From contig BMAW01101096.1 in assembly GCA_019974015.1 (NCBI GenBank), forward strand, positions 295,229 to 359,228: DNA of 64,000 nucleotides. The letters run 5' to 3'. The DNA is from Nephila pilipes. Lineage: Eukaryota. The translations under genes were made by a program, and so were the position numbers. The notes below the pieces were generated by a model that did no database searches, was not told where the DNA came from, and saw only the letters and a list, made by a program, of their open reading frames with translations. Positions 391 through 46,454 of this stretch are shown piece after piece. The stretch's first letter is position 1. Each line of letters starts with the position of its first letter.

Positions 391-3024
391 TTGTTTGTAT
401 TTACTATATATGCATACTTCTGTTTACAGATGAAGTTTTTCGACAAAATTTGTCTACTGCTTTTTCTCACAAATGTGGATTCTCGACTTAAAGAGCAACA
501 CAGACCATGCTCATTCAACCCATTATGCACATGTTCAAATGGAGGACCAGACCTAGGATCTGTATGTTGTCACAACATACCTTTTATGACAGTTCCCTCC
601 CAAATCAACAATTCTGCAATTTACATAATGAGTCTTAAAGAAAACAAATTACGCTTTCTTGAAGATAATAGTTTAAATGGAACTGGGCTATGGAAACTTC
701 AAATTAACAACAATCTTTTAACAGATTTACCCTCTAATGCTTTAGCTGGACTGGAGAAAACATTATCAATTCTAGATTTAAGTAAAAATAATTTAGTAAG
801 GATACCTAGAGAAGCAATACAGAATTTAGAAAAACTCAGTAATTTAAATTTAGCTGGCAACAAAATTACCTACTTAAACAGTGACGATTTTCGTAATCTA
901 GGTAAGACATTAAAACTTTTAGATTTGTCAGAAAATGCTCTAATGCAAGTTCAAAATGATGTATTTCGAAATATGATATCATTAGAAGTTTTAAACCTTG
1001 CGTATAATTCCATAATTTCCATAGATGACATTACATTTCACGGAGGGTTAAATAACTTAAAACATATAATTTTAACAGGAAATCAGCTGCAGCAGATTCC
1101 ATTAAATGCACTAGCTAATTTTAGAAACATTAAAATCGTGAACTTGAATGAAAATTTGATATCCAGTATATCTGAGGGAAGAGAAATAAGAAATCGCATC
1201 TATCTCGATGAATTACATCTCGAACATAATCTTATTAAAGAGCTAACAGCAGAAAGTTTTAGACTTTTCAGTCAAGTAGATCGCATTTTTCTAAAAGGAA
1301 ATCCACTCTCTATAGTTAACGACACTTTTCTGACTACTAATACAACCGAAATTTACATGCCTTACTGTTCAATATCAGTTATAACACATACTGCATTCCT
1401 CAGTTCAACACATTCACTACAAGTTCTTGATTTAAGTCACAATGAGTTAAAAGAATTTCCAGTCTTACCACTGACCAGATTGACAAAACTCTCGTTAGCT
1501 GGAAATTTGATTAAAGAAGTTGTTCCTGAAGATATAAAATACTGTGGAAATTCTTTAAAGTACTTAGATATCACAGGAACAAAAATGAGTGGTTTGTCTG
1601 AAGAGAGTATGAATTATTTACCAAACGTAAGAGAACTTTCTTTCAACAAACAATACCCTGTCGTTGGTGCGGAATCTTTACAAAATATTAGTCCCTCAAT
1701 GGAGAAACTTAACATGGTCCAATGCTCCATAAAAGTCATTGAAAATGGAGCATTTAATAGATTAAGTGGCTTAAAATCATTGGACTTATCTTACAATACA
1801 ATATCGAAAATTGGAAATACTACTTTTAAAGATATAAAGCACTCATTAGAAAAACTTATTTTGCACAGTGCTCTAAGAATATCGATATTCCCTTATAAAG
1901 CATTGAATTCACTTTCAAAGTTAGAATATTTAGATGTAAGCAGTAATGACATCCAATATCTACCATATAACTCTTTTGTTTCATTTCAGAATTTAAGGCA
2001 TTTAAATTTAAATCACAACGAATTAAAAGATTTAGATTCAAATTTTGTAAACGATATACATAACCCAAACCTTGCAGAAATAAAAGTGGCATTTAACAAA
2101 ATAACCTCTTTGAAGTCATATACTTTTCGAAATTTGAGAAGTTTGATTTATTTGCAACTAAACGATAATCTCATTGAATTCATCAGAAAATCTGCATTTC
2201 TCGATTTGGATTCGATAATGATAATTCGGTTAGAGGGCAATTCAATACAAACTATAGACAGTGAAGCCTTTCAAAATTTACCAAATATCCAAGTAATTAA
2301 TCTTGCGTACAATAAGTTATCCTCTTTTAATCTAGAAGCCTTTAATCAAGTCGGACGACTATCAACTTTAAGAATTGATGTCAATCACAACAATATCCAG
2401 AATTTAACAGGAGACTATACGGTAACACATACGTCAAGTAATATTAAGCACCTTAATTTCAGTCATAATAACATATCGTATTTGGATAGCAATTATTTAG
2501 ACCCAATAAGATTATCAGTTACTATCTTAGACTTGAGTTACAACAGACTTGTGAATTTAACAACTCTTGCTTTTACAAATATGGCTCATCTGCAAACACT
2601 GATCCTCTCAAATAATATAATTAGTAAAATAGATGAAGATGAATTTAAAGGTTTAAGATCCATACAAGTGTTAGATTTATCAATGAATAATCTAAATACT
2701 CTCCCAGAAAATTTATTTGAAAAACAAAAACAACTGAGGATATTTTTATTACATCATAATGAAATCGACGAATTACCAGAAGACATTTTTAAGGCAACTA
2801 TTCTGGAACAGATAGATTTGTCCTTTAACAACATTGAAGAATTCCCTTATTATTCTATATCTCAAATCAAAAACACTTTGCAATTTTTGAACTTAGCTGG
2901 AAATCAAATAGAAGCTCTTAATTTCAGTAGTATAATGTCTCTGCAAAATCTAAGGTACTTGAGTCTTTCACGAAATCGACTGTTTATACCCAGTTCTGAA
3001 GAAGATTTACAACTGCCAAAATTA
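391..3024 (+). CDS. chp: Chaoptin-like GPI-anchored LRR cell-adhesion protein, exon 1. A probable signal peptide MKFFDKICLLLFLTNVDS starts at the second ATG (430), followed by an LRRNT Cys cluster and about 30 leucine-rich repeats.
   Basis: Continuous 908-codon ORF with repeated LxxLxLxxNxL motifs. The N-terminus RPCSFNPLCTCSNGGPDLGSVCCHNIPF matches the chaoptin LRRNT pattern. A phase-0 GTAAGT donor follows codon L at 3022-3024. The ORF tail beyond 3024 is low-complexity intron readthrough. Confidence 0.85.
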
Positions 3025-3942
3025 GTAAGTATTACATTATTAATTATATTCAGAAAAAATAAATGTTTGTGTTTTCAATATTTAAACGCTTTATTAAATA
3101 TAATTGTAAGTATTTAAATGATTTTAAAAAATATTTACAACCAAACTGGTAAAAAGTAAATAATAATAATTTTATCAACCTCAAAATTTCTTCTATTCAT
3201 GTTTAAGCAAAATGAAATTTCTTTATTATATAAGTCGAATTGAGAAATACTTAATTAACAAATTAACAAAATAAAACATATATAAATAAAAAAAAAAAAT
3301 TATGGCTGAATTCTATAACATTGCTATTTTTCATCAAAGTAAAAATAAAATGTAATAAACAACTATGAGCTTTTGAAAATGGGAAAAAATATATATATTT
3401 GAAAAATTTAAGGGGAAAAAATGAAAAAATATTGAAATTTGTGTGACGGCATTTCAAAATATTTTAATCATAAGCTGGAGATAAAAAGTTATTAGAACAC
3501 AACATTTAAATAAAAAACTCAAAATTCATATTTTTTTGTAATGTTTTAAAGATATTTTAAATGATACTAAAAATATTAACTTATACAAATAGATTTTATT
3601 TGACACATTATTAGACCATTTTCGTAACAGTGAAATTTAAAGGTCACCAATGAGCTTATATATGTATATCCAATTCATTATATTCAATACTTTGTCTACA
3701 TATGGAAAAAGATGATGATATTAATGGGATAAATTCTACGATGATGAAAAAAATAACATTTATCTAATGCATTTTAAAAGAAATTGTTTATCATACTTTA
3801 ATACAAATAAGACTTCTAAGAAAAATTAACTATAATACATATATTTATATTGTTTTCAGTATTTTATACAAATCACAGTTTTATAGGAATATTAAAAAAT
3901 TCATAATTTTTAAATGAATTATCGTTTTTGTCTTTTTTCTAG

Positions 3943-4734
3943 ATAACACTGGATCTATCTCATAATACGATAAAAGAGCTTCCGGCATGGATAGCTAACC
4001 ATTTACCCCCCAGTCTCGAACAACTCAATTTGGCAAATACAAGTTTAGAAACTGTTCCAGCTCTAGGTTCCTGCAATATTTTAATTTTGAATCTAAGTTC
4101 CAATAGCATACAAACAGTGGAACAAGAAGAATTTGAACAACTTAAGAAACTACAAACTATAGATTTATCTAATAACTTGCTGCTAACTACTTATAATAAT
4201 GTATGGTCAAACCTTCAACATCTGAAAACACTTTATTTGCAAAAGAATCCAATACAAAAATTATTAAATAATAGTTTTATGAACATGGAAAGGCTACAAG
4301 AATTATTTATGAAAAAATTAAAATTGCAAGAAATTGACCAAGATGTTTTTCATGAATTAACAGCACTAAAAAAGGTAGAAATGGATACTTTTCCCAATAA
4401 GAATATGGATTTATCTCAAATACTTCGAAATAATCAAGGAATTCAAGAGATTCGTCTGCATGTGCAGGACAATGGATTAGATGGAATATTCAATGGGGAA
4501 CTTCCTAAATCATTAAAATTCATTGTATTGGAAGGAGAAAATTTAAAACATTTAGATGAATCAATATTTTCCTACATCCAAAGTCAAACTCTCAAGCTGA
4601 ATATTCAGAATTCAAATATAACCAAACTCTCACAGAAAGTTTTTCAAAACATGAAAGAAGTAAGGAATTTCACAGTGGAATTTATAAACAACAAATTACA
4701 GACACTTGAAAAATTATATGCAGTCGGAAAAGAG
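3943..4734 (+). CDS. chp: Chaoptin-like LRR protein, exon 2 (LRRs continue: ITLDLSHNTIKELP...).
   Basis: A polypyrimidine tract and AG at 3941-3942 precede the exon. It is in frame with the 4030-4794 ORF. Phase 0 joins ...LQLPKL|ITLDLSHN into a perfect LRR. A GTAATA donor follows at 4735. Confidence 0.8.
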
Positions 4735-5930
4735 GTAATATTAAGTAACAATTTTCATAAAATGAGTAGTTTTTTATACATCCATGAAAAATAACTATAA
4801 AAATAGTTCATTTAACTGTATAAAAAAAAATTGAAAGAACGTCTGATTAATGTAATGTTTGATGAAGATAAATTTTGGCCTATGATTTCAATTACATTTA
4901 TGGAGGGTAAAACTTAATTATGCAGCATTTTATTTAATGGCATTTTAAAAAGACTACAGCAGCGATATTTATTTACATTCAATAACAAGTTAAGTTTCAT
5001 TTAATCAGTAAAAAAACAAGTTAATATAAATTCCTTAAATATCAATTTTAAAATTAATGTTAAAATTAAACACCACTGTGTTAAATGTTTAGACGTTTTA
5101 AAGCCTAGTGAATATAAAAGAAATATATATTAACAGAATTGCTTTCAAAATTAAACCTTTTCTTTCAGTTTTAATTATTTCATAATGGCATCGGCATAAG
5201 CTTATCATTCAATGCTAATGTGATATAAATCAAACAGAACAATCAAAAAGGAAAATGTTACTTCTAAAACATTAATTAAATATCAAAATATGATTTTTTT
5301 TTATTTTACTTTATCAACAACATACATTTCAGACATTAAATTTTTTCCTACTAACTAATCATTTGACGTTCTTTATTCACTAAGCCACCTCTTTAATTAT
5401 ATGTAAACTATCTATTTCTTTCCCATTTAATATATATTTCTAAATGTAATATAACTACATAATGAGAGATTTAAGCACTTTAGTTTTGCAAATGCAAATC
5501 CAAAATACAGCGTATTTGATTTTAAATATTTAATATTTGAAGTTTTTTTCTAGAGTTATCGAAAAAAATTATTTTAATATTTCTTTCTTTTTCATTTTCT
5601 CCCTAATTAAGATGCAAATCTCTTCTAAATTGATATTTAAAGATATTCTCTCATGAATGTTTAACTTTTAATTAAAGTGCTAATCGAGTGAAAATTTTGT
5701 GATTAGCATCCGTATCACACAATACTAAGATGGGTTGTATTCGCGACAGGTGATAATGTCAATGTTATAATAGTTATAAGATAAAATTAAAATGTTGTAA
5801 GCAAAATACAGAATACGGTTTAATCACTCGAAAAATTAAGCACACATATGTAATTAAATTACGTGACAACACATCGTAGATTTTTAAGCAATATAACCTT
5901 TTCTTGAAATATATTTTTTTCCTATTACAG

Positions 5931-6254
5931 GTATCCGGAAAATACCTGAAACATTTAAAATTGTCAGGAAATCAATTGGATTGTGATTGTGAACTTTTCT
6001 GGATATGGGAATGGTTGAAAGAATATGAATACGTGAACAAATGTGAGGAAAGGATATGTGAAGAGACTTATTTACATGATTTACGAGAAACCAAATGCGT
6101 CAATATGAATAACAGATCAATCATAAATGTATTTAAAACAGATTTACAATGTGTTTCAAATGGAACTCCAGCAGAAAACCCAAAAAGTATATTACTTCAC
6201 TTCTTCATAAGCATCGTTTTCATGCTATTTTACATAAAAGTGGTTATAATCTAA
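5931..6254 (+). CDS. chp: Chaoptin-like protein, terminal exon: LRRCT (LDCDCELFWIWEWL...CEE..C) followed by a hydrophobic C-terminal tail typical of a GPI-anchor signal; stop at 6252-6254.
   Basis: Acceptor cctattacag|GTA at 5929-5930 is in frame with the 5904-6254 ORF. DLRETKCVNMNNRSIINVFKTDLQC resembles the chaoptin C-terminus. The tail ends ...SNGTPAENPKSILLHFFISIVFMLFYIKVVII*. Confidence 0.8.
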   Translation, partial: VSGKYLKHLKLSGNQLDCDCELFWIWEWLKEYEYVNKCEERICEETYLHDLRETKCVNMNNRSIINVFKTDLQCVSNGTPAENPKSILLHFFISIVFMLFYIKVVII

Positions 6255-14300: not shown

Positions 14301-15604
14301 TAAAATTTAATGGAATAGATTTTGCATGATTAGAAATAAAATTTTCATTACTTTACATAAACATTTATAGTTTCCTTAAAAAAACAGAGAAATATTGAAG
14401 AAAAATTTATATGACTTTTTAAAATTTGTATTGAATCTAATAAAGCATTATTCGTTATTAGCAAAATAAATAATAATATAAACAAATGAGAGACATCATA
14501 TATATTGTTTCAGAATACTTTACAGGAAAATGTTTTTCACAGAAGTTTTAATAATTGACAAAATAAAATGATTCTATCAATGAAAATTAAATTTTAGTCT
14601 GAAAAATTAAAACATAAAAAATAATAGAATAAGAAATAGGCAAAGGTGATATACCATTTGAGTAATTCTCTTACAAAACTAATTTACATAGTCAATTTGA
14701 TAAAAATTTCTGTATTTTAGTTCTTTTGAAGAAATTTGACCTTATTTAAAAGGAAAGTACCTTAATTTAAAAGGAATGTAAGAACAAGTAAGAAAGAAAA
14801 TATTAATAACAGCATAATCCTTTATATAAGAAGTATAGCATGAAATCATGGCCCATGGTCAAACAAGTTTTTCAAGTAAATAGCTCACTGATAAAATCAT
14901 TATTTCAAAAAATAAATACAAAAATTCCATACATCTAAAAATAAAGAATAGAGTTAATTTTTATAACCCAAGTCAATCAAGTTGTGCTAAAAATTAGTTT
15001 ATTCAAACACATAAGTTAATAAATAATCTTTTTTTCATGTAGTATACATCAATAATCTATAAAAGCAATAATGCTTTGTATAAAAGGCAATGAATAGTAA
15101 GTATTGAAGCTAACAGATCAGACTATCAATTTAAAATTCTACTCTGTCCTTAAAATATTAAAAAATACAATAAAAATGAAAACTAAAGTATATTTATTTC
15201 CAAAGGGAAACTCTTGCCAAAGGTTAGAGGGGAAGCATTAATGTTGGGAACCCTGAACTCTATGATTGCTTTAGAGTCTATTCACTTAGCCCAAATTGAT
15301 TACATAGTTGAATCACAGTTTATGTGAATAGTTAATGCTTCATTAGTCGACATAGTTTCTCTGTGGGATATCATGGAGACGAATTGCCTCACAACTTGAT
15401 GGATTAGAGTGTAGTTTATTTTCTCTTATATTTTAAATTTGAATTAATTTGTAGTTCAGTTCTTTTTTCCACAAAGGGGCCATTGGATTGAACTTGGGCT
15501 ACAACACATAAATACTATGCATACAAATGTCCCTGTCAATAGCACCTCACAAAAATGCCCCTTCAAATATTTCAGTTTTTATTTTTTACTTCAAAATGTC
15601 TCAC

Positions 15605-15767
15605 CTTTTCTATTTTTTTATCGTCCAACGCCGATGGAAGTACAATATCACAAATAACTAGACTTTTTCCAGGAATTGGTTCCAAATTATGAAGAGTAGA
15701 TATTTCAAGAGCTGCACTCACAGCACGCTTATAAGATTTCACCAGAGATAAAGAAACAGCTTGGATT
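15605..15767 (-). CDS. RO60: Ro60/TROVE2-like RNA-binding protein, C-terminal vWA-domain exon (...YKRAVSAALEISTLHNLEPIPGKSLVICDIVLPSALDDKKIEK).
   Basis: Acceptor cctcag and donor GTGAGA on the minus strand. The translation aligns with vertebrate Ro60 ...[34 protein letters not shown]. Confidence 0.7.
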
Positions 15768-17288
15768 CTGAGGAAATAAAGAATAAACACTAGTAAAAGA
15801 AATAAACCTAAAATTACACTAATTTTTTACAAATATATTTTTAAAAAGAAATGTGAAATAATTTTAACTATGTGTAGGGATCACCTCAGAACTGCACAAT
15901 TGGGTATTGACGACGGCCTCGTAATTCTGACTGACATTAAGGGAAGAAGACATTTAACCTAATGTTTTTCAAATTTCTACACAACATTTTATGACAAATT
16001 TGCAGCTCAATTGAATTCAATGAGATTCATCCATAATTATTATCATTTGATGATTAACTAATTTTTATTATATTTATAAGATTCAAAATAGTTAAAAAAT
16101 TACATAAAAATAAAAAAAAACAAAAATAAAATGAAGAGTAGTTCTGAGTTTATATTCATAGTGAAACAATAATTGAATGAATAACGGAATCTGAGTTAAT
16201 AACTTGAAATTCTTTAACTTATATCATACAACAGTAAGGTATGCCACGGTATCACAAACTTCTCAACTGTAAAATTGGATTTTTTCTGAAGCCCAATACT
16301 TAATCGAACTTTACTTATATCAAAAATATTATCTTCTTTCTATACAAAGACCTGAGGTTTTCAAGAAAGCATCAATAATTAATTCTTTTTTACTGGTATA
16401 TGAAAAGTAATGCAAATGCACACTCTCGTTCTGTTTCATGTATTATTTAGCAATATATACAAATATGTACATGTTCTGTAATAGCAATATGATATAAAGT
16501 ATACTTTTCAGAGTATACATTAAAAAGCAATTGTTTCTAAACACATTTTTTTATTTAAATGATAAACTGAACTTTACATTTAGTGGTAACGTTTTGGTTT
16601 CCGAGTTACTGAAAAAATGAGTAAATTACCAGAAATGAATATTTATGTGAAATGTACATGAAACAAAAATATTCATTCTGGTAAGAAATATTTTGTAATT
16701 GAGTTTCAGTCATTTGCTTCAATAAATTAGAGCGCTATTATCAACAAAAACATAATACAACAGATAAAGAAACAAATTTGGGAGAGAATACAATTTAGAT
16801 TAAAATATTTAAAGCTAGAGAAAAAAAAAGTTTAATTTATAATGAGCAGTTGTAACGATAAGAAAATTATTATTCATTCACAACTTCCGAGTACTGAAAG
16901 ATAAATAACAAACTGCTTCATTTTATTTACCATTCCAAAAGTCAAACATTCAAATGTTAAAATTGACTGCGTTCTTTAATGCTGATAACATGCAACGAAA
17001 GATACTCGACGCAATAACCGATTCGGCCTGATCTGCAGAATTAAAAATTACGTCAGAATAAAGTACTCATTCTGAGAATTGTTATTCTAGAAATGAATGT
17101 ATTCTCCTATCACATAAATAAAATAAGATAAGTCGAACTTTTTAATTTCTCTAAAAACTAAGATATAAATTACTGTAATTATAGTTAGATATATGTGAAA
17201 AAGTTTTTTTTTTTCCCCCAATTTGAGAGGTGCCAAAACTTAAGTTAAAACATATTTTTCGTAAACATAAATCCGAATATAAATTTTT

Positions 17289-17389
17289 AAAACTTACCAG
17301 TTGTGAAAGTTAATGAATTTCGTCTACTTTTCAATCTGACAATACAAGGTTTATAAATTTCCTGATAATAAGTATAAACAACATTCGGT
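17289..17389 (-). CDS. RO60: Ro60-like exon (NKMLPNVVYTYYQEIYKPCIVRLKSRRNSLTFTT).
   Basis: GTAAGT donor. The AG acceptor choice was fixed by phase compatibility with the upstream exon. Similarity to Ro60 is weak here, so the boundaries are tentative. Confidence 0.45.
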
Positions 17390-17571
17390 AACATTTTGCT
17401 CAAAGTATCAACTGTAAATCAAAAGTTCCTGTCAGGTAAATTATTTAATTTCTTCAATATTCGATTTTTAAATTTTTTTGACTGAATCCAAATTAATCGC
17501 ATTTTGTTCTGCCGCGGCTTTTGAGAAAAGTTTCATGTACTTCAGAAATTCATACTAAAATAAAATCTCAC

Positions 17572-17705
17572 TTTTCGACTAATTTCTCGAGTACTTCCAT
17601 TTTCCATAATCCATCCCTAGACCGCCAATGTCTATAGTTTCCATTATGAATATTTTCAATTCCAGTAAGAACTTTGAATGCTTCATAAAATTGAAGAGGG
17701 GACTG
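17572..17705 (-). CDS. RO60: Ro60-like exon (AVPLQFYEAFKVLTGIENIHNGNYRHWRSRDGLWKMEVLEKLVE).
   Basis: It aligns with Ro60 [42 protein letters not shown] donor. The acceptor was chosen after an in-frame TAG, which gives phase 0. Confidence 0.6.
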
Positions 17706-18337
17706 CCTACTGTTTTTTACTGCAATCTTTTTCAAATAAATAAAAAAATATTCATTGTAAAGTAAAACAGTTAATGAAAATTACTGAGCAAAAAATACAC
17801 TAAATTCAAATCTTCATTAAAATTATACAAAAAGATCAATATTCATAACAAAATACGGAATATAAAAACCAAAAAAATGCGCATATAAGTGTTGAAAGAT
17901 AACCATATATTTCTGATATATTTTCATAAGTTGTGATTTATAATGAATTCTAAGAAATTCTACTAAGATTTTAATGTAAGTAACTTACAAAAAAAGCGAA
18001 ATAGAGAAATGTTTATGTCGAATAAATATTTTTAAGTTTAATGTATGGAAACTTTTTTTATAAGTTAGCTTCATTCAGCATTTCTCAATCACATATTCAA
18101 AATTTTAAATTATAATAGTTTCATAATCAAATAATATAAATGTATTTAATAACATTTGTTACCATTTTAACAAAAATCGTCATTCCCAGAAAGTAAGAAT
18201 AAGAAAACAATATTTTTTTAACCGGCTTTATTAAAAACTGGAAATATCATACAAATATAGCATACAAAAATGTATTAAATTATGCAAATAACTGCAACAA
18301 AATATTTAAAATACTTATTGAAAAATGTGTAACTTAC

Positions 18338-18447
18338 TTTATTTTCCAACTGCTTCAGCACTTTATCATGATGCTTTTGGGAGATGCCCGACACTATTAA
18401 GTTTCTCAAATTCCTCAGCATCGCCATGTATGGAAGCTTACCATTGT
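18338..18447 (-). CDS. RO60: Ro60-like exon (DNGKLPYMAMLRNLRNLIVSGISQKHHDKVLKQLENK).
   Basis: It matches the conserved Ro60 segment [21 protein letters not shown]. Acceptor ...aatttag and donor GTAAGT; phase-compatible with the neighbouring exons. Confidence 0.7.
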
Positions 18448-21400
18448 CTAAATTCAGATAGTCAAACAAATCAATTCAAATAGTCAAACAAATCATAAAT
18501 GACAAATCAATTTTACACTGTACAATTAAATATGAAGTGAATTAAATTTTCAAGAAATCTCAAAGCTTCCATTAATAAAATAACTGTTATGAATGAAAAC
18601 ACACAAAGAAAAAAAAGAAAATGCAAATTAATCATTTCCACAACTCCCATTCCTCAGAAATTCACTTCATCTTATTCATACATTCTTACTTTATTCATTC
18701 ACCCAATAAAACAAATATATAATTAGGTTCATAAAAGGTTACCTCCTTTGCTTCTAAGAAAATGTGCTTAAAAATATTATACAAATTTGTATTAAGACTA
18801 ATAGTAAGAAAATACTTTACATTAATATTTAATGATTAATCTAAAAAATCGTTACATTTTCACGTTTTTGACAAAAATTTTGCAATGTTGAATTACCTTA
18901 AATAAATTAATATATTAAGTATAGAGAAGGCGATTAATTTCCAATAAAATTTCGATTTTATTCAAGTAACAGATATTTTAATCAGTTATTTTACTTTATT
19001 AAATATATTGCTATCATTGCAAATTTAAAATTCACTTTCAGCAAACGTTTGAGTGGATAGATCACTACGACTAATAATTTTAGACAACTAGTTTAAAAAT
19101 TTTTGTCTAATTAACAAAATTATTGTTATTGAGAATTTGACTTCAATTATATCTATGGTAACTATTATTTTCTAAAACAGATTTCAAATGTGTAGTGAAA
19201 ATTCTAGAAAATCAAGTAATAGTAATAAAAAGGGAAAGAACAATAAAATCATCACGTTGAAAAAAGATATGACAATTTGTATATTCTATGGCAAATAGTT
19301 GCTTATTTCTTTTATTTAACTAATATTAATTTCAAAAACAAATATTTTGAAAAATTTGACTATCAATATCTGTCAACAAAAAAGTCCATAATTTTTCTGC
19401 TAATGCTATTTGTAAATATAGTGTTATCGTTCCTCTGTAGAGGGAGTTTTGTAAGGGTGACTGTGTAAGATGTTTCTTTACAAAACATTCAAAAGAGAAG
19501 GTGAATTCTGCACAGATTGCATGCGCTGAGAGTAAACTGCGGCTTTCAACAACGTAATGCGATAATAATTCAAAAAAAAAAAAAAAAAGAAGAAGTTATT
19601 TTTATTCAACCCAGTCTGTTCCTTGCTTCAAGTTTTAAGTCAACAGTTAAGTAAATGTTAAATGAATGAAAGTTATCTCTAAAAGCAAAAATAAAGTTAA
19701 ATAAAGTGAAGTTAATATCAGAAAAGCACTGAAAAAAAAAGCATAAATCAAAATAAATATATATATGCAGTTTTCAAATTATAACTCTTTATTACTATTT
19801 ACCAAAACTGCTACAGCTAGATAAGTTTTTGAATATGATAAATAATTATAATAGCAACGATTATTGAAGTGAAATAATCGTGTGAGTATAATTATATGAT
19901 ATATAAGATCATACACTGTAATCATGAATCAGGCAGAATAACAGATTTTTAAGAAAAGCACTGAACTAATGAAAATTATGGTTTTAAAGAAATTACTGAG
20001 AAGTAAAGTAGTGCTAATTAATATGAATTTAAAAATTTTGGGCTTATTTCATTGCAAATCTTGAAAGAGCAAAAAAAAAATTTAAAAAAAAGACTACCAG
20101 CAAAAAATTCAATAGCAAAAAAAAAAAAAAATTAGGATTTGTAAATTAACTTACGGAAATCAGAAGTACATAACGGCAATAAAACTGGATGATTGATTAC
20201 ATCAGCAAATTATTTTTTACTTGATAATTTAAACTGGGAAAAGCACGGGGGTGGGGGTGGAAAAGAATATATTTCGATTGCTTTAATTTACACCACCACG
20301 CTTTGAAAAAATATTACAGAAAGCTGTACATCACCTCGATAAAATGCTTTTATTTGAAATATGAATGGACAATTTATACAAGTAATTATAAAAATTCAAC
20401 CAACAAAGGAAAATTTAATGTAGGTAATTAGATAATTTTTGAAACATTGTGTAAACATGAATCTCGATGGGTAAACCAAACACAGAAATTGTCATTGTTA
20501 TAAAATTCAATGATAAGTTCATTAACATTTTAATCCACTACACATAGTATATGTAAAATTACATTTGTGTCAAATTTTTGAATTAAAAATTTACTAATTA
20601 CCATTAGCTATGACGCAATATTTGAAAATAGATAATTGTTTAAACAATACAAGAATTTCGAAAATCCCGTAAAATATAGAGAAGTAAATGTATAGCCCCC
20701 CCCCCCTTCCTCACAAGGAACAGAATAACCTCAATAACTCCCGAAATTTTTCCAGTAGCTTGACAAAGCTGATTTGTATGTAAATGGCTCAAAGAGAAAT
20801 AAATTTATTTAACTTTGGGTTCATTAACTTTACTACTAAAAAGAATTCCCATTACAGATTTAAATCATTTATTTTTCATGTAACTTTTTCTCATTATAAA
20901 AGTACGTTAATTTTCAAAAAATTCTGCTCATAAGTTTTTGAATTATAAGGTTTAACAGAAAGTACAATAATGTTAAATGAATGTCGGGAAAAAACATAAG
21001 ACGATATAAAATTTCTACTCAATATTTCATCAATCATCAGATAATTGGTTTTCAATTTTAAAAATACATAACATTAGACAAAAAATATATAAATAATAAG
21101 AAGTACAAAAATATGGGCAAATACAAACCACAACACAGTTACAAAAAAGGAATTGTTATGCTCCTAAATGTTTAAAAGCTCATGAAATTTTCTCTAAGCA
21201 GTTTAAGAAATATTCAAAAAACAAATCACAACCAATAGGGGATATGTTTTATATTATCTTAAATTAGTTTGTAATTTTTGAACTATCAAACCACTTCGCA
21301 CATGATGTCTGAAAATAGATAAATGTTACGAGCAATTTGCATTTTTTAATTATCACTAAATCTTTGCAATAAGTAACCTAGTCTTTGGGTCCCTAATTGT

Positions 21401-21511
21401 TTTTCAGCATCTTTACTTTTCTCGTTCACATTAATACATTCAGTAACACATTAAAATACATTTTTATATAAAAATTTGGCATTTTTATCAAAGCAAAAAA
21501 AAAAATTATAC

Positions 21512-21669
21512 CTAACAATTTTTCCCAAATACAAGCCTTATTTCCATGAGCTGATATTTGTGTTTCCCATGTTTCAGGAATAGGTAATTTCATTCGTTGT
21601 CCAGCTTTTTTGTGATCCCAAATTCCAGGCAATCCACTTTTTCTAAAGACTTCAGCAGTTTCTGGATAC
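21512..21669 (-). CDS. RO60: Ro60-like exon (YPETAEVFRKSGLPGIWDHKKAGQRMKLPIPETWETQISAHGNKACIWEKLL).
   Basis: ttttaag acceptor and GTATAA donor. It aligns with Ro60 ...[25 protein letters not shown]. Phase 1 at the start and phase 1 at the end fit its neighbours. Confidence 0.65.
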
Positions 21670-21914
21670 CTTAAAACATATTTTAAGCGAGGAAAAATTT
21701 AACTACAAATGAGAAATCGAGAATAAAATAAAAACAAGAAGAAAACATTATAGGAAACAACTTCACGCACGCACGCGCGCGCACGTGTATGTGTTATGAA
21801 TCTGCTGTAAAGATTTCCAGCAACGTTACTTTTATAAAAGAAGTGATATTTACAGAGGATTCGTAGTATACCCAAGTAGAGTTTTGCAATGCCCCAGACC
21901 TTGGGACCTTTTAG

Positions 21915-22300
21915 GCACAAAATGAAGGTTTTCGCAAATGCTCAAATTTTTCCGATATATCTATTAAAACAGAAGTTATGAAATTTTCCTGAAAATTTTC
22001 TGTGACGTCACACCAGGCGGGAACAGCTATAAATACGCGGAGATGCAAAGACTGCGTGAATCTGCCTTTGGAGTGCAAAGTAATACTAAGATTTGTTCGT
22101 AGTGCGAACGAGTAAGCTGATGAGCTGAACGTTATTGAAAGTGATTAGCTATCTGTTTGTGTTGCTTATTTGTACAAGTGCTGTTTTGGTTCCTGGTGTG
22201 TCTCTAATTTGTACAAATGCTGTTTGGGTTCCTGATGTGTCTCTAATTTGTACAAGTTCTGCTACCTGTGCTTCGACGTGTCCTGAATATTTATGATCAT
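21915..22300 (+). repeat. 5' LTR-like direct repeat of a non-autonomous LTR retroelement. It contains the TATA-like ctataaatacgcggag and an internal ~45-bp tandem duplication (tgtacaaRtgctgttt.ggttcctgRtgtgtctctaatt).
   Basis: About 80% identical to 23685-24100 along roughly 380 bp (...gggaacagNtaNaaaNacgcggagatNcaaag...aatctgcctttgNagtgcaaNgtaatac...gcttatttgtacaag...). Confidence 0.65.
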
Positions 22301-22766
22301 CGCGTCATTTTTCACTATCCTCATCGTTGGATAGTTTTCACCGCACACTTACAGGAAGATTTTTGAAACAGTGGTGTCAGAAATGGGAATGCGGAATGAA
22401 TGCCCGTGACCAGAGCAATGGACGATCAATTCGAGAAGCTGTTTGCTTTTATATCAGATATAAAGGATATCAGAAATGAAATCCTGGTGTGAGGAAATGA
22501 AAGTCACACAAGCAGGAATAATTAATAGAATAGAAAACAATGCCAAGAAAGAATGAAAAGTCAAAGCCAAAGTGTGAAAGTAATGATTGAAGGAGTAAAA
22601 GACGGAATTCACAGAAGAAAATCGAAGGAGTAAAGGATCCAAAGGTTCAAGATCCCAAGAACTGGGCATTCAATGTCGTCAGTCATGGAGCTTCACCTAC
22701 TCTTAGAGACAAGCCACTAAAGATGCTTTAAAGATAGCTGGATAGAATGTTTAGAGAATTATTAAT

Positions 22767-23123
22767 GTGAGACTTGTTGAACAGGCCTTAAACGGTTCAG
22801 GGATGGACAACAGAAGCCCCCATGATGTGGTATTGGTTGAAGATTCTACTCGAATTCTTAGGATCCAGAAGGTGCCTCGTGACTTTTTCAACGGAAAAGA
22901 ATTGTTTAAGTCCATTACTCCAAATGAAGCTGTTGGACATGGTACTACAGTTAAAGCTGCTGTATTACCAGAAAGCACAGATAAGGGAAACAAGGGTGTG
23001 CTTTTAGTTCCTCCACTCTCACTTGGAGATGAAACTGCAAGTGGAGTCATAACTGGGAGCATTGAGAAAAATTCCGAAATTCTTTGCGGTATCTCCCGGG
23101 TGATCACATGTTCAGAGGACTAG
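22767..23123 (+). pseudogene. HSP70-family gene fragment (nucleotide-binding to substrate-binding domain junction) embedded inside the LTR-bounded element; degenerate and non-functional.
   Basis: The translation [48 protein letters not shown]...GVLLVPPLSLGDETASGVITGSIEKNSEI matches the canonical Hsp70 segment [48 protein letters not shown]...LLLDVAPLSLGIETAGGVMT. Confidence 0.75.
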
Positions 23124-23254
23124 CTTGCAGTTGATATCCAAATGTATAAAATGACAGGTTGAACTCCAACCGAGATGCGTTTTAATCGAACGCTACGAAT
23201 CTCCGAAGATATCCTCTTTGGATGACCGAATGATACGCATCGCCAGGAGAATAC

Positions 23255-23647
23255 ATGAGTGGTTTAGAGGGACATTCAAAAACTGTACAAGTGCCTGCCA
23301 GAGAGCGAATTAAACTGGCCAGCGAAAGAATGAACTGGAAGCGACAAAGGGGCCAGAGTCCGAAGCTAGAAAGGAAGTGGGATGAGTCTTGTATAGTTAT
23401 CAAGAAACGAAAGAATGTTGTTTTCAGAGTTACGGTTCACCCAAAGCTAAGCCAAAAGTCACACTTATTAATCAGCTATCTACATACCAGGAAAGAGATA
23501 ATAGTTGTATGTAATGATACTGCCAAGTCTTTGAAGAGGGGAGCAATGTTACGGACCTGCAATGACACTTCACTGCAACGTTACTCTTATAAAGGGAAAA
23601 CAAACATTTATACAGATTTCATAGGATACCCTGGGAGAGTTAAGTAA
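23255..23647 (+). pseudogene. Retroelement integrase C-terminal (SH3/chromo-like tail) fragment, ending immediately upstream of the 3' LTR.
   Basis: ...SPKLERKWDESCIVIKKRKNVVFRVTVHPKLSQKSHLLISYLH follows the LTR-retrotransposon integrase tail pattern (kL.PkW.GPy.V.....vaYrL........H.s.LKpY). Its position abutting the 3' LTR is as expected for the end of pol. Confidence 0.55.
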
Positions 23648-23684
23648 TGATCGCCGACGTTGGCTGCGAACAAGGCGAATACTT

Positions 23685-24100
23685 TAGAGATTGACGACAA
23701 AATGCAGGATCTCGAAATTGCTCGGATTTTCCTGATACTTCAATTACAAGAGATGTTATGGAATTTTTCAGCATATTCCATGTGACTTCACACTTGTTGG
23801 GAACAGTTACAAACACGCGGAGATACAAAGTCAGAATGAATCTGCCTTTGAAGTGCAACGTAATACATATCAGTAGATTTGAAGATTTGAGATTTGTTAG
23901 TGCAAACTAGTAAGCTGGTGAGTTGAGCATAATTGAAACTGCTCTTTAATATTACAGCTATTATTAGTGATTTGCTATTTGTGTATGTGGCTTATTTGTA
24001 CAAGAGCTGTTTTTGCTCTTGTTGTGTCGCTATTTTGCTCTGCTAGCTAGTTATTATGCGAGCAGTGCTTCAACGTGTCTTGAATATGTATATTCATTTT
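23685..24100 (+). repeat. 3' LTR-like direct repeat, partner of 21915-22300.
   Basis: Sequence similarity to the 5' copy through ...tgcttcaacgtgtcttgaatat; the sequence diverges where the minisatellite starts. Confidence 0.65.
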
Positions 24101-25395
24101 ATTTTTTAGAATTGTGTATTTATTTTATTTTTAATTACGCTATTATTTGAAATTTCTAAACATATATTTATTATTTTAAAATTATGTATTCATTTTATTT
24201 TTTAAACTATACCATTTTATTTTTTAAACTATACCATTTTATTTTTTAAACTATACCATTTTATTTTTAAAATTAAGAATTTATTTTATTATATTTAATT
24301 ATGTATTTATTTCGTTTTTTAAATTATGTATGAATTTTATTTTTTAAATTACGTTTTTATTTTATTTTTAACTATGTATTTATTTTATTTTCAAATCATG
24401 CATTTATTTTATTTTCCTATTCTTGAAGTATACATTTTTTTCTTAAAACCCTGTATTTATTTTATTTTTTAATTATGTAATTATTTCATTTTTACTATGC
24501 AATTATTGTATTTATTTTATATTTAAATATGTATTCATTTTATATTTAATTGTGTATTTATATCGTTTTTAATTATGTACTTATTTTTTTATTTTAAAAT
24601 TATGTTTATTTTTTAAATTACGTAATAATTTTATTTTTTTATTATGAATTTATTTTATAATTACTTATGCATTCACTTTATATTTAATTATGCTTTTTAA
24701 TATTTAATTGTGTGCTTATATCGTTTTTTTTAACTATTTATTTTTTAATTTTTAATCATGTATTTATATCGTTTTTTGATTGCGAATTTATTTTTTAATT
24801 TTAAATTTTGCATTTATTTATTTACTTTAAAATTATGTATTTATTATATAAATTATGCATTTTTTGGAATTAATGCATTTATTTTATTTGTAATTATGAA
24901 TTTATTTCAATTTCTAAATTAAGTATTTATCTTATTTTTTAAAATAATATATTCATTTTATTTTTAATTTTGTATTTATATCATTTTCAATTACATATTT
25001 TTAAATTATGTATTTCTTTTCTTTTATTTTTTAAAAAATTTGTATTTATTTTATTTTAAAAATTATGTATTTATTTTATTTTTAAAATTATGTATTTATT
25101 TTACTTCTTAAATAATGTATTTATTTCATTTTTAAAAAATTTGTATTTATTTTATTTTTAAAATTATGTATTTATTTTATTTTTAAAATTATGTATTTAT
25201 TTTACTTCTTAAATAATGTATTTATTTCATTTTTAAAAAATAATGTACTTATTTTATTTCATAGTTTTTAAAATTATGCATTTATTTTATTTTTAAAAAT
25301 ATAATGTATATACTTTATTTTTTTATTTATTTATGTATTTATTTTATAGTTATGCAATTATTGCATTTTTAAAATTATGTATTTATATCGTCTTT

Positions 25396-25426
<31 letters not shown>

Positions 25427-25453
25427 CATATATACATATATACATATATATAC

Positions 25454-25487
<34 letters not shown>

Positions 25488-26830
25488 TACGACAAATACA
25501 TTAACTCTTTAAATTTCATGCATTTTATGGTATTTTAAAAATTATGTATTTATCGTATTTCAATAACGTATTTATCTTATTTTTTAAAATAATGTATTCA
25601 TTTTACTTTTAATTATATATTTATATCGCTTTTTAATTATGTAATTATTTTTTTAAATTGTGTATTGCTTTATTTTATTTTTTTAAAAGATATGTGTTAT
25701 TTTATTTTTAAAAGTATGTATCTATTACATATTTTTAAATTAAGTATTTATTTTATTTTTTCAAGTATTATACCTTTACTTCGGTTCTTTAAATTATTTT
25801 TTATTTTATTTTTTAAATTATGTAACTATTTAATTTTTAAATTGTGTTTTTATTTTATTTTTAAATTGTGTTTTTATTTATTTTTAAAATTATATATTTA
25901 TTTTACTTTTTAAATTATGCACTTATTTATTTTTTTAAAAAAAGGTCTTTATTTTATTTGAAATTTTTAAAATTAAGTATTTATTTTATTTTTTAAAATT
26001 ATGCATTTGATATTTTTTCAATTACATATTTATTTCCTTTTCAAAACCACATATTTATTTTTTAAAATATATATTTATTTTATTTTGTATTTTTAAATCA
26101 TATATTTATTTTATTTTTTATTTATGTATTTATTTTATTTATAAAAACTTTGTATTAAATATTTTTTGAAATTGTGTATTTATTATAACTTTTTAAATTA
26201 TGTATTTATTTTATTTTTCACACATTGTATAGTTCAATTTTTTTTCAATTATAAATTTATTTTTTTTAAATTATGTTTTTATTTTACTTTTAAATTGTAT
26301 ATTTATTTTAATTTTGAAATTAAATAAAAATTTTACTTTTAAATTTTTATTTTATTTCTATGTTTTAAATTACGTTATTACATTATTTTTTTAATTATGT
26401 ATTTATTTCATTTTGTAAAATTTTGACTTACTTCATTTTTAAGTATGTATTTTTTAATTATGCATTTATTATATTTTTAAATTATGTATTTATTTTACTC
26501 TTAAAATTATGTATTTATATTATTTTTAAATATGTATGTATTTTATTTTTAAAATAATTTTTGTTTTATTTTTTAACTATGTATTTATTTTATTTTTTAA
26601 TTACATGTCTCTTATTTTTTTAAAAAAAAATGTGAACTTATTTCATTTTTTTATTATATGCCTTAATTTTTTTTTATAAATCGTGTATTTATTTTATTTT
26701 TAAATTATGTATTATTATTTTTTTATAAATCATGTTTATTTTTAAATAATGTATTTATTATTAATATTTTTAACTTGTGTATTTATGTTTTTATTTTTAG
26801 TTATGTATTTCATTTAACTAGAATTATTTA
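24100..26830. repeat. AT-rich minisatellite/satellite array. The unit is about 26-29 bp (consensus near aattatgtatttattttatttttaaa) with a higher-order structure; for example, a ~115-bp block at 25020-25135 is repeated at 25135-25250. The array includes a (TA)n/(TATACA)n tract at 25396-25480.
   Basis: Hundreds of direct iterations of tatgtatttattttatttt variants are visible across 2.7 kb. Confidence 0.9.
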
Positions 26831-29174
26831 TTTGTATTTTAAAATGCTTTGTTTTATTAATTTGAAAATTCGGACAAATTTGTAGAGTCATAAAAATTAA
26901 TCTGAAGTTTTTAAAGAATTTTATTTCTACATTGCTTAATGCGTCTGAGAATAAAAATTAAGACAAATAATATTATCAAATTATTTAATGACATAAGTGA
27001 ATAAAATTATTTTATAAATTTTTGAAATAAAAATAGTACAAAATGAATTAAAAATAATACTTAAAATATTGCTGTCACAAAATAATTTTAATAAAAAGAA
27101 TTACTTTCACTCAGTAATAGATTCTAAAACAACGATAAATTGTCTGTGTAAATTTATTCATACATTTAAACAACTGATTCATTAAAGGAGACATTGTATA
27201 TATTATAAGAATAATTATAAATGAATGCAATTTAATAATATGCTTCAGAATGCTTAATTAAATAAATCGATACACTTTTAAAATGATAAAATGAATATAG
27301 CATAATAATTAAGTCAATATCTTTAAAAAAAATTCATTTCTCCAAAGAATCAAAATATTCTGAAAACATTTGTCAAACAGTAATTAATTTGAGAATCTAA
27401 GAAATTTTCATTTCAATTTTAAAAAAATAATCATTTAGGAATTTAAAAGATTGAAATACGTTTTTAAATAAAACATGATGAATATTACGTATTGTAGAAT
27501 ATATACAGGATCCAATAAAAAAAATTCACACAAGAACACTTAAACTTTGTAATTTTCAAAATAAACAAATAATTTTAGTTACATTTTAAGCAATACACTA
27601 CACTATGTAATAATATTGATAGCGTCACATTGTGTTTAAGTAATGCATCAAATATTAATATAACATATTTTAAAAAAATAAGTGGGAAAAATATTATTCA
27701 GAAATTGTAAGACCACATAACTCTATTTATATGAATTATATAAAATAATAAAGACAATCCATTATTTCTGCTTATGACATGAAGCACTTTAGCTTTTACA
27801 GAAGAAAACATTTTTCGTAATGTGCAATCCTTTGGCAAAGGAAACTCCCAGTTTATTTAAAGGAAAGGTAAAAGTGTTCATTATTTGTATAGATTCTACG
27901 TTTCAGAATGCATTAAAAATTCTCAACAGGACTTATATTTTCGATTGGTCAATGATAAAATATTTTTTTCAAAAAAATTATTAATGACTAGATTTAGTTC
28001 TATATGAAGAGAAATATTTCATTGGGTCTGTTTAAGAGCCCCTTAATAATGCTAAACTGATACAAAATTATCGCAACGCATTGTTCTATACGAGAGTTCA
28101 TGAGTATAAATATTCGCTATAGATCACTTATTCTGTTAAAGCTACCCATAACGTAACAAAGCAACCAACTATTTACTATCGACTCAAGCATGTTTTAGGC
28201 TCATGCATCAAATCAGGCCAATATTATTAGTAATCATCCAAACCTTCGATATAAAACGTGTTTTCGTTAGAAAAAATAATTTGGATATACTCTTTGACTT
28301 ATGTTATGCTTTTCAGCATATACAACTGATGCTGTTTGAGAAGTTCTCGTTTGCTTTTTAATTTCCTGCGTTTAGCAAAAAAACTTGATTTCTCAAGTTA
28401 TTCAAAACAGAAATACCAGGCTCTTTTGCTAATTTATTTTGATACTTTACGAGTTGAAAATTTTGTTGGCAGCCGGAAAATCTGCTGAAAATCTTCCTCC
28501 ATATCGTTTTATTTTTCACAATCCAGCAGACACAAAGGGAATTGTAACTTTATAATTCACAATATTAACGAGTTTCATTTATGTTGCAATTTTCATTCTA
28601 AATTTCCAGCATTTAAGCAAAATTTAAAAAAAAACTGCCTGATTCTCGCTTAAAATGAGTCAATGTTAAAAAAAAGATTGTGAGAACATCTTCATAATTC
28701 AAATTTCTTCAACTCCCTCTCTCTCTCTCTGCTTTGTTGTGGCTGCAAATATTTAAACTTTCTTAATCAGTCATATTATTTCTTAACAAATAATTAATTT
28801 AATTTTTAATAAGCCGGCCAATCTGAATTGATTTAATATTTATCATTAAAATTAATACATTATGGATGCCCCTACAATTTCAGTTACACTAAATTATGTT
28901 TTTATACATACATAAAATATGAAATATCCAGCACATATCATTTACAGTGTGTGTGTGATAATTAATAAATATATCATCTTCCTTTTTATTTCAATTTCTT
29001 AATGCGAAATATTTGCTTCTACTTTTAAAATATTAAATTCCTGTTCTTCGAGTAAGTAACTCGTAGAACAGAGCACGTGAAATACTACATCACGAATTCC
29101 TTTTTTCCGTCGACTAAACAAAACTTTTAGGGTATTTACCCGTTTCCATCTTTCCTATTTAAGCTGTATGTACG

Positions 29175-44529: not shown

Positions 44530-46454
44530 TCATAAAGCAGCATTATACCTGTAATCAATTCGTAGTTCGTAAAGAAAACTTACTTTCCATACATGAGATT
44601 TCATACATAGATATTTGATATTTTCCATATATGAGATATTTGAAATGTTGCACAGAGAAGCAGCTGCAGCTAATTCGAGAAGTGGGGCAAGGCTGTACAC
44701 TCTGTTATGGCGGCATCTTCTGCAAAGTTGGTTTATGGAACTACATTGAAGCTGCCTGGAGAATTGCATCAGTCGAAGCAAGGAGTAGATAACATATATA
44801 AGCGTAACAGCAAGGAAAGTCTCTGATGAATGCTATAAATGTACCTTTGCATGGTTTGTGCCACATTTCAAAGGTCAAAAGTCATGTACACGTATTCGAA
44901 AAGTCCAGTGAGTGTGATCACGGCTATTTTAAGAATATCTTGACTGTTCACGAGGATTTGATAATAAGCTTTGACCAGATCGATTTTTGAAGAAATGGTT
45001 TTTTCACGTACTCCATTAACAAAATCTTGAATGTGAGGGAGAGGATAGCGATCAGGTATCGTAATTGCGTTTAATCTTCTGAAATTTACCACAAATACGC
45101 CAAGATCCACTATTTTTCTTGACAAAATGAATAGGACTGGAGTATGGACTTTTTGAAGGTCTGATAATAAATACCTTGACGCATCAACTCACTAAATTCT
45201 TTTCTTAAAAAAAGAAATTTTTTCAGAATTTAGACGTTGAGCTTTGGCATACTCAGGAAATCTTCTTGTTGTTATGCAATGTGTAACTGTACCCTTAATT
45301 AAATTTGAGGTTTAACTGTTAGAAAATAATTTTGGATAATTTGAAAATAACGCATGAAAAAGTGAAGCACTCGTTACCGGAAGAATTTCTTTTGACAGAT
45401 AGAGATGCTTAACTATCAAGAAGTCTTCTATTTTTGTCATCAATAAGAAGCTCAAAATGATCCAGAATATCCGCATCTAGGATAGGATGCGAAACGTCTG
45501 CAACTAAAAATATCCAAATGAAACTTCACCAGACCAAAGTCTAATCCTAGTTTAAGAGTACCATAAATGAGTATTTCTGAACCATTATTCACGTCAAGTA
45601 CAAGATCTTGCTTTTTAGAAAAATTTACAAAATGTTTAGGATAACAACTCACTGCAGCACCATTGTCAAACAAAAAAACTGCGCCTAGATAACCGATCTA
45701 ATATAAATAATCGGCTGTTAGACCTCCACTGATCTGCCGGCGACAAAACAGATGTGCTCTCTACTTTTTTGACCAAGTACATCATTTCATGCACTTGGTT
45801 GCTCTATCCCCAAACCGATGATGATACCAGCAGAAATATTTAGAAATAAATTTGTTATGAATAGGACGAAAGAATTTTATGGCCTTTGACCTAAAGACAC
45901 TTAGACTGCTAAATCTACCCCGTGGTATAAGAATTTTCCTATTTCTTTGAGTTCAAAAATTTCCGCTAGAAGAGCATTCAAATCCGAATCGTTTGCGCTC
46001 AACATTTGCAGTTGTCAAATTACCTCTCGACCCTTCATAAATCTTAAGCGCAATTTGTGCAAATTCATCCAGTGGAGTTTTATAATTTGCTGCAAGTTAT
46101 GATTCAACCTTTGTAACCATAGTTTGCAGGATGTCGTCCTCCATGATTTCAGGAGCTAAATTATGCATTTCATTCAATAAGAGAAAAAGATATTTGTTAC
46201 TTAGCTGTAAATCTTTAAGTAGAAAATTTAAACGAAAATTAACTTGACCCGGAAAAATGTTGGATTATCCTACCCTTAAGAGCTTTAAAAGCTTGAATTG
46301 TAGGAGAATTTTTAACAATATCCTTAACACAAGATAGTATGTTAGGGCTCAAGGCAGCAAAAACTGCGTGGAATTTAATAGACTCGCTAATAATAGCAGC
46401 CATGACAAATTGGGATTCAATTTGGTAAAACCAAAATTCAGGATCAGTTCCCAA
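44530..46454 (-). mobile_element. Ty3/gypsy-like LTR retrotransposon internal region on the minus strand. It comprises a gag N-terminal segment (46239-46454), an aspartic protease (45452-45673) and RT motifs (44868-45125, possibly continuing to about 44530), all broken by stops and frameshifts.
   Basis: gag: PEFWFYQIESQF...ESIKFHAVFAALSPNILSCVKDIV..P..AFKALKGRIIQHF. Protease: FDNGAAVSCYP. RT: RRLNAITIPDRYPLPHIQDF...SKIDLVKAYYQI...DILKIAVITLTGLFEYVYMTF. The order is gag-PR-RT on the minus strand, while the adjacent integrase remnant lies on the plus strand. Confidence 0.7.

Follow-up and report, generated by a model that had tools for sequence, protein, structure and literature searches.

Evidence for an old, internally deleted Ty3/gypsy retrotransposon enclosing Hsp70 pieces in the spider Nephila pilipes

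Introduction

The capture of host-gene fragments by long terminal repeat (LTR) retrotransposons is well documented in plants and is seldom described in animals outside retroviral oncogenes. In acutely transforming retroviruses and in Ty1 cDNA chimeras, host sequence replaces pol or gag between the LTRs in the sense orientation, the junctions lie at short homologies, and the product is replication-defective and depends on a helper; template switching, the mechanism discussed for LTR elements, is likewise accepted for retroviral transduction. Bs1 of maize, a non-autonomous LTR element, has retained its LTRs and a portion of gag and contains pieces of three host genes without full open reading frames (ORFs); it is present in a few copies, and its transcript is translated to give a chimeric protein. 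The capture in Bs1 has been attributed to events during reverse transcription, and capture by template switching is established not for Bs1 alone but also for the LTR elements Veju and BARE-2 (review: PMC13317346). Here, we analyse a locus in a 64,000-nucleotide stretch of the genome of the spider Nephila pilipes (assembly GCA_019974015.1, contig BMAW01101096.1, positions 295,229 to 359,228 of the forward strand; hereafter the window), at which an element of this general kind encloses pieces of a gene for the chaperone Hsp70.

Like Bs1, the spider element is non-autonomous, retains its LTRs and part of gag, and has host-gene fragments without full ORFs inside, with element sequence on both sides and on the same strand. 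Unlike Bs1, it resides in an animal host, carries pieces of one host gene (Hsp70), is known from one copy, and is clearly pseudogenised. By comparison with what is established for transforming retroviruses and Ty1 chimeras, the arrangement appears analogous in that sense host coding sequence stands in place of pol and gag, whereas those chimeras are recent, were selected or experimentally observed, and have functional ORFs, and the spider copy is ancient, fragmentary and decayed.

Our literature search found no paper on an LTR element carrying Hsp70. The event is a modest one, a single, ancient, decayed instance of an already known kind of capture. With one decayed copy and no sign of function, the practical importance of the locus is small and its relevance lies mainly in repeat annotation; as a spider case with readable junctions, it adds a data point on the shuffling of host coding sequence by reverse transcriptase.

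Results

Overall structure of the element

The features of the locus identify it, with near certainty, as the remains of an old Ty3/gypsy LTR retrotransposon, dead and internally deleted, with spider Hsp70 pieces inside (Table 1). The element spans positions 21792–24097 on the plus strand of the window, and its parts follow one another in the order gag remnant, Hsp70 blocks and integrase tail, so that element sequence lies on both sides of Hsp70. The coding sequence kept amounts to ~65 codons from gag and, from integrase, the final ~120, while the rest of gag, protease, reverse transcriptase, RNase H and the integrase core are replaced by the Hsp70 pieces. Consistent with this arrangement, a tblastn search with the pol protein of related elements of the spider Araneus ventricosus detected no protease, reverse transcriptase or RNase H similarity between the LTRs. 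The parts that are retained are the cis-acting ones, namely both LTRs, the primer-binding site for tRNA-Leu(CAA), and the polypurine tract. The element contains no intact gag and pol ORFs, the gag and integrase remnants both being frameshifted, and it has no present function. The element has ~40% GC and forms a GC-richer island in the window (~27% GC), and no second copy of element sequence was found within the 64 kb.

An initial annotation of the window had placed an LTR-bounded unit of ~2.2 kb at 21915–24100 and had read it as a heavily deleted LTR retrotransposon that had transduced, or recombined with, a host chaperone fragment. Our analysis supports this reading with corrected boundaries: the unit is bounded by LTRs, its true start lies 123 bp further upstream, at 21792, and an autonomous family has homologues of its LTRs, of its primer-binding site and polypurine tract, and of its gag start and integrase tail. 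The interior, put at ~1.4 kb, measures 1176 bp (22371–23546).

Table 1. Features of the Nephila pilipes element and of the adjoining satellite, in window coordinates. Asterisks in amino-acid sequences stand for stop codons.
Feature	Position	Strand	Description
5′ LTR	21792–22370 (579 bp)	+	TGTT...AACA; start from homology to 3′ LTR, end from A. ventricosus alignment
Promoter block in U3	21986–22035	+	TTCctGAAaaTTT (21986–21998), TGACGTCA (22003–22010), TATAAATA (22028–22035); read from sequence
Tandem duplication	22168–22261	+	TRF period 39 bp, 2.4 copies, 90% matches; 5′ LTR only
Primer-binding site	22372–22387	+	TGGTGTCAGAAATGGG; complementary to tRNA-Leu(CAA) 3′ end
gag N-terminus remnant	22418–22612	+	MDDQFEKLF...; frameshifted, ~65 codons
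Hsp70 block 1	22615–22690	+	~residues 72–98 (..DPKVQ-DPKNWAFNVV..), frame 0; weak evidence
Hsp70 block 2	22692–22766	+	residues 150–174 (F..S*RQATKDA..IAG*NV*RIIN)
Hsp70 block 3	22772–23150	+	residues 315–444; one stop; GG338/339 replaced by ED
Integrase C-terminal tail	23151–23515	+	MTG*TPTEM...; one frameshift; gap relative to A. ventricosus tails
Polypurine tract	23533–23546	+	GAAGAGGGGAGCAA; abuts 3′ LTR; read from sequence, identical core in relatives
3′ LTR	23547–24097	+	truncated; without counterpart of ~22300–22370 (U5 end, last ~70 bp)
Satellite	24085–26815	.	TRF: 25-bp unit, ~111 copies, 2.7 kb, AT-rich, ~10–14% GC

Relationship to a Ty3/gypsy family of Araneus ventricosus

The assignment of the copy to Ty3/gypsy rests on homology to A. 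ventricosus elements and not on its own domain order, as its pol content is the integrase C-terminal tail alone. We compared it with three A. ventricosus loci (L001, L002 and L005; GCA_013235015.1). L001 supplies the order protease, reverse transcriptase, RNase H and integrase, its domains being, in sequence, Asp_protease, RVT_1, RT_RNaseH, Integrase_H2C2, rve and Integrase_p58_C. The window copy resembles this family in its TGTTA LTR start, the promoter block in U3, an LTR end of the form ..(A/T)ACA, the tRNA-Leu(CAA) primer-binding site, the gag start MD(K/D)QFEKLF, the integrase tail, and the polypurine tract. It differs from the family in lacking protease, reverse transcriptase, RNase H and the integrase core, and the two agree at only ~70–75% of nucleotides in the best blocks. 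The Hsp70 cargo is a feature of the window copy, as no Hsp70 sequence was found in the A. ventricosus elements that we retrieved.

Internally deleted derivatives are common in the A. ventricosus family, as L005 shows. Specifically, L005 3661–~7300 (BGPR01005357.1) is a 3.6-kb internally deleted derivative without host sequence; between its two LTRs come, in this order, the primer-binding site, gag, a piece of protease joined to the pre-integrase region, and the integrase tail. The nearest named relative of the family is a 'transposon 412'-like pol in Trichonephila; at the DNA level, a '412-like' locus of Trichonephila clavipes (L004) has no similarity to the element.

LTRs and cis-acting sequences

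Pairwise alignment places the beginning of the LTR–LTR homology at 21792 and 23547, with TGTTA at both positions. The similarity ends near 22300 and 24097, while the 5′ LTR itself extends to 22370, an end fixed by aligning 22307–22388 to the LTR end and primer-binding site of L002 (...TGCAACA C TGGTGTCCAGAAGTGGGAT) and of L005. In a MAFFT alignment, the two LTRs match at 361 of 480 aligned sites (119 mismatches, 75.2% identity), with eight gap blocks, corresponding to ~0.30 substitutions per site (Jukes–Cantor). An earlier impression of too few indels, which bore on selection on the Hsp70 ORF, was dropped because it came from an over-gapped local alignment. At 75%, the LTRs are far closer to each other than either is to any A. 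ventricosus LTR (51–55%).

The initial annotation had recognised two direct repeats of ~385–415 bp and ~80% identity; the repeats are real, and they are longer and more diverged than this. Its proposal to look for TG..CA termini is borne out by the 5′ LTR, whereas the 3′ LTR has the TGTT start as its only readable end. Specifically, the last 73 bp of the 5′ LTR score 20 against 24093–24200, compared with 17.8 ± 3.0 for random satellite windows. A target-site duplication of 4–6 bp had also been proposed as a check. With the LTR ends defined, the 5′ flank of the element reads ..GTATG, and no duplication is readable because the 3′ LTR runs into the 25-bp-unit satellite, which replaces its end and leaves the 3′ flank undefinable. 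In the relatives, ATAT opens the flank beyond each of three 3′ LTR ends, in L001 and L005, hinting at an AT-rich 4-bp target.

The TATA-like box reported in the first repeat corresponds to TATAAATA in the 5′ LTR, preceded by TGACGTCA; the TATA box is degenerate in the 3′ LTR. An internal tandem duplication had been described as 45 bp long and private to the first LTR; TRF and the MAFFT alignment agree that it is private to that LTR, the unit being single-copy in the 3′ LTR, and give a unit of 39 bp. A microsatellite-like (CACG)n/(CG)n/(TG)n run, cacgcacgcacgcgcgcgcacgtgtatg, at 21765–21791 directly adjoins the 5′ LTR start.

A spacer of 1 nucleotide separates the primer-binding site from the 5′ LTR, and L002 and L005 have this site after their LTR as well. 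In the window, the site matches 15 of 16 positions of the reverse complement of ...CCCACTTCTGACA plus CCA, the 3′ end of the Drosophila tRNA, and is the sole match in the window, where 0.02 matches are expected. The Drosophila tRNA-Leu(CAA) gene sequences (...GGTTCGAATCCCACTTCTGACA) are printed in PMC4536317; no tRNA gene was found in the window or in the loci that we retrieved. At the other end of the interior, the polypurine tract of L001, L002 and L005 has the form TTGAAGAGGGGAGCA(G/A) followed by TGTTAC.

gag and integrase remnants

The gag assignment rests on a nucleotide match to L005, in which positions 22407–22445 have 82% identity to the beginning of a gag-like gene (ATGGACGATCAATTCGAGAAGCTGTTTG versus ATGGATAAACAATTTGAAAAGCTGTTTG). 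The predicted protein start MD(D/K)QFEKLF is common to the window and L005 and lies 30–50 bp past the primer-binding site. Farther downstream, the gag similarity is weak, and comparing the window with the gag of L002 as protein gave no significant match (E about 1).

The initial annotation had placed an integrase C-terminal tail directly before the 3′ repeat, and database searches confirm it. The frame-corrected translation of 23151–23500 matches 38 proteins, 37 of them from A. ventricosus, with a best E of 2.3e-21; the matched A. ventricosus proteins are annotated as integrase C-terminal fragments (PF22938, PF24626), and one match is a 'transposon 412' pol of Trichonephila. Furthermore, the tail is 72–73% identical to L001 and L002 in blastn and is matched in tblastn with an E of 1e-18. 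The gap relative to the A. ventricosus tails amounts to roughly 23 codons (TRYDS...YNP), judged by eye.

The Hsp70 fragment

The interior had been described as containing a degenerate HSP70 segment of ~120 amino acids (22767–23123). Its Hsp70 identity is upheld, and the single segment resolves into three collinear blocks, all on the strand of the element. Pfam PF00012 matches the 118-amino-acid open frame with an E of 2.5e-15, and 7.9e-22 when the flanks are included. With human HSPA1A, for which there are solved structures, residues 315–444 form a domain match with an E of 5.5e-23, and residues 150–180 match more weakly. Block 3 covers the end of the nucleotide-binding domain, the linker, and the start of the substrate-binding domain. 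Block 2 has 72% identity over 25 amino acids in tblastn, and its positions 22701–22767 are 77.6% identical in nucleotides to positions 2060–2125 of an Hsp70 locus of Trichonephila clavata (L003, BMAO01024832.1); block 3 has ~70% nucleotide identity to L003 2548–2932. For block 1, the HMMER domain (residues 80–103) is not significant when taken alone, and the nucleotide match of 22648–22676 to L003 1857–1884 was equalled in 8 of 200 shuffles. Hsp70 residues ~99–149 and 175–314 and all residues beyond 444 are absent, and tblastn detected no other Hsp70 in the window.

The captured sequence probably derives from a spider cytosolic, inducible-type Hsp70, closest to nephilid Hsp70, an origin supported by the protein matches. 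An HMMER scan of the 118-amino-acid ORF against 1.84 billion representative proteins returned 3276 matches; among the best 150, all but one have 35–57% identity, and the remaining one, 'heat shock protein 70 A1' of T. clavata, a nephilid like the host, reaches 64%. The window and the T. clavata Hsp70 have in common the lineage-typical residues AVDIQ.Y and ..N S. I (P/L) C.. (..IPC/ILC..). The fragment has no introns; because the closest spider Hsp70 locus (L003 1617–3467) is itself intronless, this state is not informative on an origin from spliced mRNA. Of that locus, we observed that it contains several frameshifts and is annotated as a mere 154-amino-acid 'heat shock protein 70 A1'; it may be a pseudogene, or assembly indels may have disrupted a gene.

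On these features of its sequence, the fragment in the element is non-functional. It consists of three part-blocks instead of complete domains, and the invariant GG of the nucleotide-binding site is changed to ED. Stop codons interrupt it three times within the 25 codons of block 2, once in block 3 and once after block 3, and more occur in the integrase part. Simulated neutral decay at 10–25% divergence is compatible with the one stop in block 3 (P 0.10–0.58), and this stop-codon simulation gave no sign of selection on the Hsp70 ORF. The 118-codon Hsp70-like ORF should not be annotated as a gene. Opposite the Hsp70 block, the minus strand contains a 118-amino-acid ORF (22751–23107) that is most likely incidental to the sense frame.

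Origin of the chimera

We consider it probable that Hsp70 was captured before or at integration, most likely by template switching onto co-packaged Hsp70 mRNA. In such an event, reverse transcriptase in the virus-like particle would have moved from element RNA to Hsp70 mRNA and then back. These switches, and the internal jumps by which Hsp70 residues ~99–149 and 175–314 were lost, would probably have taken place at short microhomologies, and the product would have been a non-autonomous chimeric cDNA, which then integrated. Later neutral decay would account for the 25% LTR divergence, the stops and frameshifts, the 39-bp duplication, and the loss of the 3′ LTR end to the satellite.

Several features are suggestive of template switching: the Hsp70 fragment has the sense orientation and lacks both its 3′ half and a poly(A), Hsp70 block 2, block 3 and the beginning of the integrase tail are in one reading frame, and deletion derivatives exist in the relatives (L005). 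In addition, the Hsp70/integrase junction possibly lies at an ATGAA microhomology, where Hsp70 has TATGAA followed by GG, integrase has CATGAA followed by GCG, and the window has TATAAAATGACAGG.

Other observations weigh against this account. The 3′ LTR end is missing and no target-site duplication is readable, which leaves a single integration event unproven. The LTR divergence is high, and two different elements would fit it too. The microhomology argument is built on sequences of other species. Later deletions are evident in the copy, and post-integration events could explain part of the structure. Finally, no copy of the chimera was found elsewhere, a weak negative in that the searches covered protein collections and exact ORFs and not N. 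pilipes DNA. In particular, a word-indexed protein search with the Hsp70–integrase junction returned one unrelated Hsp70 only; among the matches listed by the HMMER scan, there were ordinary Hsp70s of ~57% identity or less and the T. clavata protein at 64%, and no chimera; and look-ups of the exact ORFs 23255–23647 and 22803–23123 found nothing on record. The T. clavata locus L003, considered as a candidate copy, proved to be a normal Hsp70 locus free of gypsy sequence and was rejected. Should further copies exist that share the junctions, this would mean that such chimeras can be mobilised in arthropods.

A rather unlikely alternative is that the chimera arose after integration, with a complete gypsy element inserting first, an Hsp70 retrocopy mediated by a LINE, or Hsp70 DNA serving as filler in double-strand-break repair, entering pol later, and deletions then taking away pol and parts of Hsp70. 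This order of events would agree with the other rearrangements of the copy (the gap in the integrase tail, the loss of the 3′ LTR end, and the 39-bp duplication) and with the failure of the protein searches to find a further chimera, and the deletion junctions within Hsp70 look alike whether they were made by reverse transcriptase or by genomic repair. It would nevertheless require at least four independent deletions that spared exactly the cis-acting parts, and the Hsp70 segment has no flanking duplication around it, in addition to lacking the poly(A) and the 3′ half. Moreover, at ~30% nucleotide divergence from the closest available spider Hsp70, which need not be its true parent gene, the segment is not obviously younger than the LTRs.

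Very improbable, in our judgement, is an origin from two elements of the same family that inserted beside or into an Hsp70 pseudogene, with deletion or recombination leaving one LTR of each. The low identity of the LTRs, the eight indel blocks between them, and the lack of a readable target-site duplication tying both together would fit such a history. It would require, however, that two insertions in the same orientation within ~1 kb coincided with an Hsp70 pseudogene in that orientation in one intron. No other remnant of Hsp70 or of the family adjoins the locus, and the closeness of the two LTRs to each other, relative to any A. ventricosus LTR, also argues against it.

It is scarcely credible that the Hsp70–integrase frame is a selected chimeric gene, whether domesticated or an element-encoded chaperone fragment: the 118-codon open frame (22767–23123) and the common frame of blocks 2 and 3 with the integrase start would speak for it, but the fragment covers just parts of two domains, the stops and the substitution of the invariant GG described above contradict it, the stop in block 3 fits neutral decay, and no similar protein beyond ordinary Hsp70s was found among the 1.84 billion representatives.

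A heat-shock-like motif in the LTR

The best-conserved LTR block between Nephila and Araneus consists of a sequence like a heat-shock element (HSE), TTCnnGAAnnTT(C/T), followed by TGTGACGTCAC and the TATA box. The promoter block TTCNNGAANNTTYNNTGTGACGTCAC is also present in the LTRs of L001 (10829–10854) and L002 (10838–10863), and, at the corresponding point of the alignment, the L005 LTR copies read TTCatGAA(at/ct)TT(C/T). L001, L002 and one L005 LTR have a perfect HSE, compared with one mismatch in the 5′ LTR of the window. HSE-like motifs are not enriched in the AT-rich window, with 43 matches versus 33 expected. The conservation of the block suggests, as a lead only, that it may be stress-inducible.

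ONSEN of Arabidopsis is reportedly a heat-activated LTR retrotransposon with heat-shock elements in its LTR. The spider LTR resembles ONSEN-type elements in having a TTCnnGAAnnTTC-type motif upstream of the TATA box, a motif that several A. ventricosus copies have in perfect form; it differs in that the window motif has one mismatch, that such motifs are frequent in this AT-rich DNA, and that the motif is known here from sequence alone. If the family were heat-inducible, element RNA would be at its peak along with Hsp70 mRNA, a coincidence that would favour their co-packaging. A broader scenario, which we regard as improbable, would combine these elements: an araneid gypsy family made heat-shock-inducible by the HSE, an ATF/CRE site and the TATA box in its LTR would have captured Hsp70 mRNA as both RNAs peaked under heat, the chimera would have spread as a helper-dependent, non-autonomous nephilid family, and the poly(A)-signal region of the 3′ LTR would have seeded the satellite. 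A functional HSE-like motif in the LTR would link stress-induced transposon activity to which mRNA gets captured.

Genomic setting

The satellite begins inside the 3′ LTR, exactly at the region that holds the AATAAA poly(A) signal in the relatives. Its first unit, GAATATGTATATTCATTTTATTTTTTA, can be aligned both with the 5′ LTR and with the poly(A)-signal region of the A. ventricosus LTR, and the second unit is an 88% copy of the first. The alignment is consistent with a satellite that may have been seeded from the R/U5 region of the LTR or may have overwritten that region. Elsewhere in the window, the satellite is represented by just a short inverted piece at 27256–27304.

A gene with a TROVE domain (Ro60/TEP1-like) occupies ~15500–21660 on the minus strand. 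Its exon at ~21477–21640 matches profile positions 246–297 (E 6.9e-19), and its exon at ~18340–18460 matches positions 297–334 (E 1.5e-11). Because its other N-terminal exons have to be at higher coordinates, both element and satellite are placed, antisense, in the next upstream intron of this gene; the 5′ LTR starts ~125–150 bp from the nearest TROVE exon. On the plus strand, a chaoptin gene occupies 427–6251 in three exons that are 99–100% identical to N. pilipes chaoptin, and the ORF 391–3117 matches at 99%, an identity that marks N. pilipes as the host.

Two further observations concern the remainder of the window. A gypsy-type reverse transcriptase start fragment at 44829–45195 on the minus strand has 36–52% amino-acid identity to A. 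ventricosus pol (E 8e-15) and is unrelated to the element in position and strand. A 127-amino-acid ORF at 47356–47739, also on the minus strand, contains repeated ..AVFGS../..ALFGSS.. motifs and is reminiscent of an FG-repeat (nucleoporin-like) exon.

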